DNA from: a virus
Lineage: Duplodnaviria > Caudoviricetes
Length of the DNA: 64,000 nucleotides
Reading direction: 5' to 3' (one strand)
IMG/VR virus record: IMGVR_UViG_3300043395_004688
Part shown: piece after piece, positions 36,852 through 39,460 of the stretch
How positions within the stretch are numbered: position 1 is the stretch's first letter
Layout of the letters: every line of letters begins with the position of its first letter
The notes under the pieces: generated by a model
Databases searched by the model: none
Seen by the model: only the letters and a program-made list of their open reading frames with translations
Told to the model about the DNA's origin: nothing
Translations under genes and position numbers: made by a program

Positions 36852-37544
36852 ATGACTACGGAATATAAATGTAAATTTTGTAACAAGTCATTCACCAGAG
36901 AGCGTACTTTAAGCAGCCATATGTGCGAAAAGAAGCGTCGCTGGATGAACAAGGATGAAGCTGAAAGTAGGATTGGATTTAGTGTGTGGCTAGACTTTTT
37001 AAAGTATGTGAGCCCACACACTAAAAAGACCAAGACATTTGAAGATTTTGTTCGTAGTCCTGACTATTTGGCTTTTATCAAATTTGCTAATTACTTGATA
37101 GACTTGAAACCATACGAATGCGATAAGTTTATTAACTGGCTGTTTAAGATGGGTGTGAGATTAGGCGATTGGCAGAAGCCAGGAACCTATCAACTTTACA
37201 TCCAAGAGGCATCAAAAAAAGAAAGTGCAGCCAGAGCATTAGAAAGAACCATCTTGGTTATGCAGGAATGGGGATTGAGTACTGGTAATGACTGGAGAAC
37301 CTTTTTTGAAAAGGTGTCACCAGTTACCGGAATGAATATGATAACCATGGGCAAGATCAGTCCTTGGATTATATATTCAACAGACTCTGCTCAAAATCTC
37401 ATTGATCGTATGGAACCAGGACAAGTAACAATAGTTACTAAACATGTGGATACGGAATGGTGGAAAAGAAAACTGAACAAAGAGCCCAAAGAAGTGACCT
37501 GGATCAACACAATGATGCAGCAGGCCCTCAGTATGAGTCCTTAG
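36852..37544 (+). CDS. Hypothetical protein with an N-terminal C2HC zinc finger
   Basis: YKCKFCNKSFTRERTLSSHMC. Confidence 0.75.
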   Translation: MTTEYKCKFCNKSFTRERTLSSHMCEKKRRWMNKDEAESRIGFSVWLDFLKYVSPHTKKTKTFEDFVRSPDYLAFIKFANYLIDLKPYECDKFINWLFKMGVRLGDWQKPGTYQLYIQEASKKESAARALERTILVMQEWGLSTGNDWRTFFEKVSPVTGMNMITMGKISPWIIYSTDSAQNLIDRMEPGQVTIVTKHVDTEWWKRKLNKEPKEVTWINTMMQQALSMSP

Positions 37545-37660
37545 AACGCAGGTTGTTGGAGTTCATTGAAAAACTTGACAAGTTGACCCTAGAACTCAGC
37601 GAAATCAAACAACAGCAAAAACTACTGACAGACATGATTAAAAATGATAAATCAGCCTGA
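37457..37660 (+). CDS. Small coiled-coil protein overlapping the upstream gene by 88 nt
   Basis: Heptad LERRLLEFIEKLDKLTLELSEIKQQQ fills the gap to the next gene; start position uncertain. Confidence 0.55.
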   Translation: MVEKKTEQRAQRSDLDQHNDAAGPQYESLERRLLEFIEKLDKLTLELSEIKQQQKLLTDMIKNDKSA

Positions 37661-38243
37661 CATTGACATTGACTTTGCCAATAGAGAACAGATCCTCAGT
37701 TTGCTGAAACATGTTCCTGCAATGCAAGGATCCAATGGTAGCAAGCAAAAGCACAAGACTGGCGTGTATTTTCATCCAGTGCCGGTCAATCCCTATACAG
37801 GTTGGTGCAGCCTTGACTACGAAGCAGCCGAACAACTGGGATTTTTTAAAGTTGACTTATTAAATGTAAACTTGTATCAACGAGTCCAAAGCAAAGAGCA
37901 TTTGGATAAGCTTGCCAATCAGGAGCCGGTATGGGAACTTTTACAACAAGAGGAATTCGTCGATCTGTTATTTCATTTGAACGGGCATGGGGATGTTCTG
38001 AAGAGGACTTGCCCTACTTCCGTGGAACAATTAGCTGCCGTCCTAGCGATGATCCGCCCCGCCAAGAGATACCTGATTGGGAAACCCTGGACGACGATTA
38101 TGAAGGAAGTGTGGACGAAGCCTAAGAATGGTGAGTATTACTTTAAAAAGGCTCACGCTGTAGCTTATGCAGTTGCAATCGTGGCGCAGATGAATTTGAT
38201 TTGCGAAGAATTTGTACTTTTTAAAAGTACGAATCAGCTCTAA
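37644..38243 (+). CDS. Minimal family-C (DnaE/Pol III alpha-like) polymerase core
   Basis: PDIDIDF, HKTGVY, GFFKVDLL, LAMIRP and FKKAHAVAY match the order of DnaE motifs. Confidence 0.85.
   Translation: MINQPDIDIDFANREQILSLLKHVPAMQGSNGSKQKHKTGVYFHPVPVNPYTGWCSLDYEAAEQLGFFKVDLLNVNLYQRVQSKEHLDKLANQEPVWELLQQEEFVDLLFHLNGHGDVLKRTCPTSVEQLAAVLAMIRPAKRYLIGKPWTTIMKEVWTKPKNGEYYFKKAHAVAYAVAIVAQMNLICEEFVLFKSTNQL
37931..38125 (+). CDS. Overprinted 64-aa acidic-tailed protein nested in the mini-DnaE gene (-1 frame)
   Basis: AGGAG at 37921-37925, 5 nt before the ATG. Stop-avoiding synonymous codons in the host frame. Confidence 0.65.
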   Translation: MGTFTTRGIRRSVISFERAWGCSEEDLPYFRGTISCRPSDDPPRQEIPDWETLDDDYEGSVDEA

Positions 38244-38614
38244 GACATCTTTCTAATAAGGCTAATTTGTCGCCGTTTAGTTCGCTTGGTAATCACATTT
38301 GTCAGACTAGTTTGATGCCCGTACAGCATTTCAAAGTCTTTGGTGCTAAAAGTTTTGAGGATATATGAAAACCGACGCATGGGCTCTTTGAGCACAATAT
38401 TAATAGGGATTAGGCGGTTTGATCCCCACCACCATTCTTCTCCACATTCAATGAATGCAGTTTTGTCATCGTCGCCTTTTAGCTGGTTGTAGACATACAT
38501 TGTGACCACAGTTTGGTCACTGTTTTGTACAATTCCAACCAATTCGCTGTCGCCGTAGCGCACCAAGCTCATAAAAGGAAAGCGTTCTAGAAATTCTTTT
38601 AGCTTACTATCCAT
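38240..38614 (-). CDS. Conserved hypothetical late protein
   Basis: TAAGTA box at 38621-38626 (minus strand), 6 nt before the ATG. Confidence 0.7.
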   Translation of the reverse strand: MDSKLKEFLERFPFMSLVRYGDSELVGIVQNSDQTVVTMYVYNQLKGDDDKTAFIECGEEWWWGSNRLIPINIVLKEPMRRFSYILKTFSTKDFEMLYGHQTSLTNVITKRTKRRQISLIRKMS

Positions 38615-38662
38615 CGTCTTTACTTACCTTTTATTTGTCTAGCGGTCATGCTAAATAATGAT

Positions 38663-39460
38663 ATGGCTACTTTAAACACAACTATTCCAACAGCTTCTCT
38701 TAACTACGCTGGTGCGGGCACCGGGCATAGTCTGACACGACATGCACCGAGCTACACTGATCAACGCATAGTTTGGTTTAAAGGTGTGGATAATCTATTA
38801 GATCTTACCGTTACAGGAACAGATCGTAGACCTGTAAGTTTATTGAATAAAGAATTAACAGTCACCCTATGGGATACCACAACAGGAACTACAATTTTTC
38901 GACGCCGAGCTATTGCCACCGTTCCAGAAAATGGACAAGCCAGACTAACTGTTTTTGCCAGAGATTTAATGACCACACCCAGCGGAATTTACAAGTTAGG
39001 TGCTACCTTTGTTGATGGCAACGGTTTAGAAACTGCCCTAACTTGGAATAGAGCAATGCAAGCTGGATTTGACATTGAAATCAAAGACGAAGTAATTCCA
39101 ACTAGCAGAACCACAGTTGCAGTTGACTCTTGGACTAACTCCGGCGGCAATTATTTTTCCAGTGCTGTAAACGGACCCAGTTTTTATCGCAAAGATTCGA
39201 GTCTGTTTTCGGTGGCCTTGTACGCAACCAACTATACTGGCACCGTCAAAATACAAGGCACACTGGATGAGGTGGTGACCGGAAACACTCTTTGGGCAGA
39301 CCTAAAGCCACAAGATGCCAGTTCGCCTATACTAACACTCACTGGCTATACTGGCATTGACCCATACAACTATTATGGTAGTGTTCGTTGGTTAAGAACT
39401 GTTCGCGCCGACAGCTCAAGCAACGCTGGAACTCTTGACAAAATCCTAATTAGAGTGTAA
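38663..39460 (+). CDS. Probable structural protein (Ig-like/BppU-like beta domains)
   Basis: Beta-rich, S/T-rich; TAAATA box at 38652, 5 nt before ATG 38663. Confidence 0.6.
   Translation: MATLNTTIPTASLNYAGAGTGHSLTRHAPSYTDQRIVWFKGVDNLLDLTVTGTDRRPVSLLNKELTVTLWDTTTGTTIFRRRAIATVPENGQARLTVFARDLMTTPSGIYKLGATFVDGNGLETALTWNRAMQAGFDIEIKDEVIPTSRTTVAVDSWTNSGGNYFSSAVNGPSFYRKDSSLFSVALYATNYTGTVKIQGTLDEVVTGNTLWADLKPQDASSPILTLTGYTGIDPYNYYGSVRWLRTVRADSSSNAGTLDKILIRV

Follow-up and report, generated by a model that had tools for sequence, protein, structure and literature searches.

Evidence for a conserved gene overprinted within the minimal Pol III alpha-like polymerase gene of a clade of jumbo phages

We analyzed a 64,000-nucleotide stretch of DNA (hereafter, the window) from a tailed virus of the class Caudoviricetes, which is part of a 177.7-kb IMG/VR virus record (IMGVR_UViG_3300043395_004688) estimated by CheckV to be 53% complete. 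The window encodes a minimal polymerase resembling the alpha subunit of DNA polymerase III (Pol III), and inside this gene, hereafter referred to as the host gene, lies a shorter open reading frame (ORF) that begins on position 3 of host codons, that is, in the -1 frame. Codon usage and comparison with related sequences indicate that positions 37931-38125 are very probably a real second protein-coding gene, overprinted inside the 199-aa Pol III alpha-like polymerase gene. The features of the locus are as follows:

37644..38243, + strand: host gene, encoding a 199-aa minimal C-family (Pol III alpha-like) polymerase module
37921..37925, + strand: Shine-Dalgarno (SD) sequence AGGAG, 5 nt (CCGGT) before ATG 37931, formed by the host codons CAG-GAG (Gln-Glu)
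37931..38125, + strand: nested, putatively overprinted ORF in the -1 frame, 64 sense codons plus TAA (38123-38125)
37931..38032, + strand: N-terminal part of the nested ORF, ~34 codons, with the strongest suppression of synonymous change in the host frame
38033..38075, + strand: variable linker of the predicted nested protein, lying over the most conserved motif of the host protein, AVLAMIRPAKRY, and without synonymous suppression
38076..38122, + strand: acidic-tail region of the predicted nested protein, coding for DWETLDDDYEGSVDEA, with G-enriched third positions in the host frame

The host gene belongs to an already known module, the minimal C-family polymerase of group 2.2 jumbo phages. 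Its product carries the motifs PDIDIDF, KVDLL, FHLNG, MIRPAK, and FKKAHA and matches phrog_11778, annotated as 'DNA polymerase' (E = 4e-61); a weak match also falls on the central part of phrog_405, the full-length Pol III alpha family. With a profile made from 48 homologues, the alignment to DnaE1 of M. tuberculosis (PDB 5lew) is colinear; in this alignment, PDIDIDF corresponds to DnaE1 residues 413-425, the site of the catalytic Asp pair, and the equivalents K-x-D-F/L-L, FQLDG, ALYRPG, and FNKSHA come in order. The AlphaFold2 (AF2) model of the host protein has a predicted local distance difference test (pLDDT) score of 91, and Pol III alpha or PolC accounts for each of its best 18 Foldseek matches in the PDB. 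In group 2.2 jumbo phages, the family has been described as a minimal Pol III alpha that is specific to phages, is split into two separately encoded proteins, and occurs alongside a family B polymerase (Iyer et al. 2021, PMC7824862); the locus shares synteny with RaK2, PA5oct, Atu_ph07, and 121Q. A PF07733 search for the N-terminal polymerase half gave no match in the 177.7-kb record, which is 53% complete.

An initial reading of the DNA made from the letters alone (the sequence-only reading) had described the AGGAG, its 5-nt spacing from ATG 37931, and the 64-codon frame, all of which are confirmed, as are the 11 Asp or Glu among the last 26 residues of the predicted product. The rare codons that it had pointed out in the host frame are also there: within the overlap, GGG is used for 3/3 Gly and ACG for 3/5 Thr, with genome-wide shares of 5% and 3-4%, respectively. 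The seven codon junctions at which a T-ending synonym would have placed a stop in the nested frame are all present, and an eighth, TTG-AAC, was counted. By itself, the open frame in this one genome is weak evidence; synonymous resampling with the codon usage of the phage leaves the frame open with a probability of ~5% for this host amino-acid sequence, and the surrounding 6 kb contain 37 ORFs of at least 40 aa. We further applied a codon log-odds score that contrasts true coding frames with -1 frames over 184 genes, stop codons excluded. The nested ORF, with a score of 0.233, exceeds all 2,699 other -1-frame windows in the 177.7-kb genome (maximum 0.134; z = 3.9) and falls at the 40th percentile of genuine coding windows, and the host frame within the overlap is at the 4.6th percentile. 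What lifts the nested ORF beyond chance is this score together with the comparative data, the latter being decisive.

The comparative data come from two scans of IMG/VR. The first, with the host protein as a query, yielded 80 loci with 55-100% host-protein identity, representing 62 unique sequences; the second, which used the deepest-branching member as a query, added 80 more loci of at least 588 relatives, with 66 further unique sequences. In the codon alignment of the first set, the same start column followed by 62-71 stop-free codons was found in 57 of the 62 unique homologues, and in the second set the same start column and an open nested frame recurred in 60 of 66. These ORF-bearing homologues span host-protein identities from 100% down to ~55% and encode 108 different nested proteins, most often of 67 residues. 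When each locus was resampled synonymously with its own codon usage, 3.3 stops per sequence were expected and the median probability of an open frame was 0.018. Consistently, the metagenomic sequences that lack the ORF carry 3-5 stops in the nested frame, and the cultured outgroups have 3-8 stops in the homologous stretch and mostly no ATG.

How the frame is kept open can be followed at individual codon junctions. A stop in the nested frame requires a host codon ending in T followed by a codon starting with AA, AG, or GA. Inside the overlap of ORF-bearing sequences, third-position T occurs at only 2 of 464 such stop-creating junctions (0.4%), compared with 43% at safe junctions of the same region, 48% at the same junction type outside the overlap, and 40% at stop-creating junctions inside the overlap of sequences that have lost the ORF.

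The initiation signals display a similar pattern of conservation. The nested ATG is composed of the last base of the codon preceding a conserved Trp of the host protein and the TG of the TGG codon itself, and in nearly all ORF-bearing sequences the preceding codon is GTA, TTA, CTA, or ATA, although A-ending codons account genome-wide for 30-41% of Val and Leu and for 15% of Ile. The column of this ATG is shared by nearly all ORF-bearing copies. No earlier start codon occurs in the open stretch of any sequence, and in many homologues a -1-frame stop is found just 2 codons upstream of the ATG. In most homologues AGGAG, AAGGAG, or TAAGGAG is kept 5 nt upstream (from CAG or AAG, then GAG), with CAG and GAG each making up about a third of Gln and Glu usage in the remainder of the host gene. 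Lineages in which the host protein has Thr-Glu at this position carry instead a GGAG 11 nt upstream, derived from ATG-GAG. Signals of this kind are used by the phage for its own genes, which are enriched in G at positions -12 to -8 and have AGGA upstream in 49 of 184 cases; AGGAG followed by 3-9 nt and ATG occurs at 38 sites in the genome, 15 of which coincide with called gene starts. Where the ORF has been lost, a TTG or GTG usually stands in place of the ATG, and two such lineages have a degraded SD sequence, CAA-GAG or CAA-GAA.

Synonymous variation in the host frame was assessed with a custom pairwise test (not Synplot2 or FRESCo) on 27 phylogenetically independent pairs, the expectation being the gene-wide synonymous rate of each pair per degeneracy class. 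The overlap holds 322 synonymous differences versus 423 expected (0.76, z = -6.2), and the flanks have observed-to-expected ratios of 1.10-1.14. The dip spans the region from the nested start to the nested stop, with a minimum of 0.59 in the lowest window, and is unevenly distributed: the ratio is 0.64 (z = -6.6) over the first ~34 nested codons, 0.95 over the ~15-codon linker, where the residues of the nested protein vary, and 0.81 over the last ~16 codons. With the stop-creating junctions excluded, the three values are 0.66 (z = -5.4), 0.99, and 0.79, respectively. Because the dip persists without these junctions, selection acts on the nested amino acids and not just on the openness of the frame. 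The sequence-only reading had named conservation of the SD, ATG, and open frame and a reduction of synonymous variation as the test of its proposal that the two frames are co-selected; both parts of the test were positive in more than 100 homologues. Judged from the alignments, the comparison shows selection to have kept the frame, the start codon, the ribosome-binding site, and the length across a deep clade of more than 100 distinct sequences.

A separate observation was made in DNA metagenomes, where contigs of more distant relatives cross-map to positions 37926-38150 only, within the 2.5 kb compared. In metagenomes X4 and X8, the summed contig depth over this interval is two- to twenty-fold above that of the flanks because contigs of related phages align just there. 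The cross-mapping fits with the overlap being the most nucleotide-conserved part of the region.

The predicted nested product has a basic N-terminus and an acidic C-terminus, with a median isoelectric point (pI) of 4.45 in the family. Shared features include the N-terminal MG-T-TRR, which is basic rather than hydrophobic, an N-terminal half rich in Arg, a short stretch of hydrophobic residues (SVISF, replaced by IISRRR in other branches), and an acidic tail studded with Trp and Tyr (DWE-x-LDDDYEGS-x-DE). Identity among clade members falls to 25-38%. The rare codons of the host frame stem from the coding of this tail. G is the third base in 57% of the tail-coding columns of ORF-bearing sequences, as opposed to 30% in sequences that have lost the ORF and 16-20% in the rest of the gene. 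Within the window, the host codons TGG-ACG-ACG-ATT supply the nested codons G-AC, G-AC, and G-AT (Asp-Asp-Asp), and ATT-GGG-AAA yields TGG-GAA (Trp-Glu); common host synonyms at these sites would instead produce Asn, Tyr, Lys, Gln, or a stop. In the clade, the last 25 residues carry a mean net charge of -5.3, versus about +1 in the same frame of the outgroups, which marks the acidic tail as derived and selected. Disorder is predicted for the product, as is usual for young overprinted proteins (PMC8227390).

Maximum-likelihood analysis of the host protein groups every metagenomic sequence in a single clade (support 100/98), with the cultured jumbo phages outside. The ORF is found in every deep branch of the clade and is absent from eight cultured relatives, including RaK2, PA5oct, Atu_ph07, and 121Q. 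Nested within the clade are at least three losses (L037+L038, L018/L019, and L039), and the second set contributes further ones (L140/L143, L141, L167, and L161). One of these looks recent: L018 has a single TGA at nested codon 8, and the remaining frame is open, with the acidic tail eroding. The polymerase gene is intact and conserved wherever the ORF has been lost, as well as in all outgroups. A profile of the nested protein searched against 1.84 billion proteins retrieved ~45 clusters of 61-71-aa proteins, all representing this same ORF and presumably called by metagenome pipelines, together with a few fusions of host and nested frames and one chimeric contig, and no stand-alone homologue was found. 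Six-frame searches with hidden Markov models likewise recovered no second copy in the ORF-lost loci, the locus flanks, or the genome, where the ORF is present in a single copy. The restriction to a single clade and the lack of a homologue elsewhere are the signature of de novo birth by overprinting. Judging from this distribution, a single origin of the nested ORF at the base of an uncultured, apparently freshwater clade was followed by several losses.

Among the outgroups, the Sinorhizobium phage Phosso (L083:2486-3061) has a homologous -1 frame that is open for 50 codons from a GTG but lacks the acidic tail. This open frame is probably a chance effect of composition, and it illustrates the raw material from which the nested ORF could have arisen.

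Several observations weigh against the assignment of 37931-38125 as a gene, or limit what can be said of its product. A recognizable SD was not found in three ORF-bearing sequences. The basic N-terminus, with a charge of +3.1 in the clade, is partly imposed by the host sequence, as the outgroups read about +2. The AF2 model of the nested protein is of low confidence (pLDDT 48.6), leaving no usable fold model, and the protein has no match in Pfam, PHROG, or ESM Atlas, and thus no anchor for function. The repeated losses show that the gene is dispensable in some lineages. As for translation, the sole metatranscriptome of the phage, which may contain DNA, has contigs only on the flanking genes. 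The conservation described above nevertheless leaves an overprinted gene as the very probable reading. If it is correct, the nested ORF would be transcribed together with the replication module, and ribosomes would initiate internally on the polymerase mRNA at AGGAG-N5-ATG to produce a protein of ~64-67 aa, predicted to be disordered, with an Arg-rich N-terminal half and a derived, acidic, aromatic-studded tail. The host gene would pay for this with rare G-ending codons (GGG and ACG), the third-position G opening GAN (Asp or Glu) codons in the nested frame.

The role of such a protein can be proposed only tentatively. The favoured guess is that it may be a dispensable accessory factor, produced alongside the replication genes, whose acidic tail occupies a DNA-binding surface, or the surface that binds the tail of single-stranded DNA-binding proteins (SSB), on a phage or host protein. 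More doubtful is the suggestion that the protein arose de novo and serves the split minimal Pol III alpha as a regulatory or tethering subunit. In that case, production from the same mRNA would make its dose track that of the polymerase, and the tail could dock in the DNA-binding cleft of the polymerase or link the polymerase to the phage SSB, clamp, or primase-helicase; the finding would then represent a young gene recruited into the replisome. Since the polymerase is intact without the ORF in the lost lineages and in the outgroups, the nested protein is not an obligatory polymerase subunit. For the same reason, and given also the predicted disorder of the product and a C-terminus that is not conserved as an SSB tail is, the role of partner or regulator in a two-component unit with the polymerase, proposed in the sequence-only reading, is left unsupported, albeit not refuted. 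Prediction of a complex between the host and nested proteins from separate alignments gave a score of 0.00, which speaks neither for nor against binding.

Selection might alternatively maintain the act of translation or a nucleotide element, such as an RNA structure or a regulatory site that tunes ribosome traffic or the stability of the polymerase mRNA, with the peptide itself being functionless. The predicted disorder, the rapid divergence of the nested sequence, and the dispensability of the gene in several lineages would all be compatible with this, but we consider it improbable: the length is held at 62-71 codons across the 108 distinct sequences, the synonymous suppression survives the removal of stop-creating junctions and tracks the conserved peptide segments rather than the linker, the acidic tail is derived and bought with rare host codons, and an Rfam search over positions 37400-38700 returned no match. 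Highly improbable, in our view, is a programmed -1 frameshift in the manner of dnaX tau/gamma, which would join the N-terminal part of the polymerase to the acidic tail, with the AGGAG as an upstream stimulator. An SD-like sequence in a Pol III-related gene does recall the dnaX -1 signal, and a public catalogue holds four fusions of the host frame with the nested frame (P0022, P0034, P0045, and P0052). However, an X_XXY_YYZ heptamer is not conserved at any column (6 of 57 sequences at most), the start codon is fixed in its column as the first of the open stretch, and the stop 2 codons upstream of it recurs in many homologues; the catalogue fusions, for their part, switch frames at differing points, one of them with a deletion, and are most likely indel errors or natural frameshift mutants. 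Finally, a chance open frame conserved as a by-product of the polymerase sequence, for which the ~5% probability in this genome and the commonness of short alternative-frame ORFs could be cited, is effectively refuted, as outgroups and ORF-lost lineages with similarly conserved host proteins have 3-8 stops, T at stop-creating junctions is depleted to 0.4% from 40-48% in the controls, and 117 of 128 unique sequences have zero stops at a per-sequence probability of ~0.02.

Another catalogue protein, P0016 (357 aa), has the nested sequence at its C-terminus and was considered as a non-overlapping fusion but rejected, its source contig being chimeric. This contig (ENA, 3,127 bp; L090:1918-2991) joins the tape-measure gene of another phage type to the middle of a mini-polymerase gene.

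Turning to the genomic surroundings, the cultured relatives (RaK2, PA5oct, Atu_ph07, Phosso, 121Q, XaC1, SCTP-2, and a Vibrio phage) share with the window the order mini polymerase, convergent small gene, 'virion structural protein', primase, and DnaB. The convergent gene (38240-38614, - strand) encodes a 124-aa protein of phrog_11637, and in the window there is a 4-nt overlap between its 3′ end and that of the mini-polymerase gene; annotations of RaK2, PA5oct, Phosso, Atu_ph07, 121Q, XaC1, SCTP-2, Hallingskeid, and the Vibrio phage show the two genes converging likewise. The 'virion structural protein' (38648-39460, + strand), so named in the relatives, lies between the mini polymerase and the primase, inside the replication module, in all relatives examined, and its counterpart in PA5oct has been detected by electrospray ionization tandem mass spectrometry (ESI-MS/MS). 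Directly upstream of the mini polymerase, a 230-aa protein of phrog_11058 (36852-37544, + strand) has a sub-threshold C2H2 zinc-finger match at residues 5-25; this protein or one of its neighbours could conceivably be the N-terminal half that the split polymerase lacks here. The whole record (G000) is classed as a 'provirus' by IMG/VR. Its gene content, which includes tail sheath, terminase, ribonucleotide reductase (RNR), DnaB, primase, and mini Pol III, as well as its relatives, suggest rather that it is a fragment of a jumbo myovirus of lytic type, with a genome of roughly 330 kb if the 177.7 kb are scaled up from 53% completeness. All or some of the stretch is present in 20 public sequencing runs, most of which are labelled freshwater metagenomes.

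The kind of feature described here is already known, for example, from Rz1 in Rz and phiX174 E in D, but the present case is unusually well documented. To our knowledge, well-supported overprinted genes in large double-stranded DNA (dsDNA) phages are few. The arrangement is like that of Rz1 in Rz of phage lambda, also a tailed dsDNA phage: a whole gene is contained in another gene of the same strand, is read in a different frame, and has a start codon and ribosome-binding site of its own. Rz1, which acts with Rz in lysis, is a lipoprotein bearing a signal sequence and a lipobox. The nested protein, in contrast, has no hydrophobic or lipobox segment and sits in a replication gene. Like E in D, K, and B of phiX174 and L of MS2 (reviewed in PMC8227390), the nested ORF appears to have arisen de novo within an older gene, and it has in common with overprinted genes of small phages and viruses a distribution narrower than that of the host gene, predicted disorder, and reduced synonymous variation in the older frame. 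Unlike in those phages, compression of the genome does not readily explain overprinting in a jumbo phage of this inferred size. Furthermore, the young nested frame is more genome-like in codon usage than the old one, whereas the common rule of thumb for distinguishing ancestral from novel frames would predict the opposite.

Compared with known replication genes and proteins, the likenesses are again partial. As in dnaX tau/gamma of the bacterial Pol III holoenzyme, a -1 frame is found in a replication gene with an SD-like element upstream. The dnaX -1 frameshift signal includes an SD-like sequence. The nested ORF differs from it in having no conserved slippery heptamer, a conserved ATG, and 62-71 codons in the -1 frame rather than a quick stop. 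The nested protein resembles the acidic C-terminal tails of SSBs (DDDIPF of E. coli SSB, T7 gp2.5, and T4 gp32) and small acidic DNA mimics (such as Ocr, Arn, and some anti-CRISPRs); it is small and acidic, has a run of Asp and Glu with aromatic residues near the C-terminus, and is encoded among replication genes. The sequence-only reading had suggested an SSB-tail-like element; the acidic run is indeed conserved, but, unlike in SSB tails, the terminus varies in length and residues (DEA, DEAREW, DETRE, or DKTN). Moreover, neither an oligonucleotide-binding (OB) fold nor any other confident fold is seen in the AF2 model. The likeness to SSBs and DNA mimics is compositional only.

The description of the split minimal Pol III alpha (PMC7824862) and the nine annotated phage records examined give a single product for the polymerase gene, with no nested ORF annotated. 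A conserved gene thus escapes standard annotation in a group of jumbo phages that is widespread and, in the runs examined, mostly freshwater. The locus amounts to a natural experiment in gene birth, with more than 100 divergent copies, an origin placed at the base of one clade, outgroups retaining the ancestral state, and independent losses in which stops, loss of the start codon, and SD decay come together. It lends itself well to asking how a new protein can emerge within an enzyme gene under strong constraint and at what cost to the older gene, a cost that takes the form of rare codons traceable base by base to the Asp and Glu codons of the new frame. A small acidic protein encoded within the replication module may also help to explain what the split minimal Pol III alpha does in these phages.

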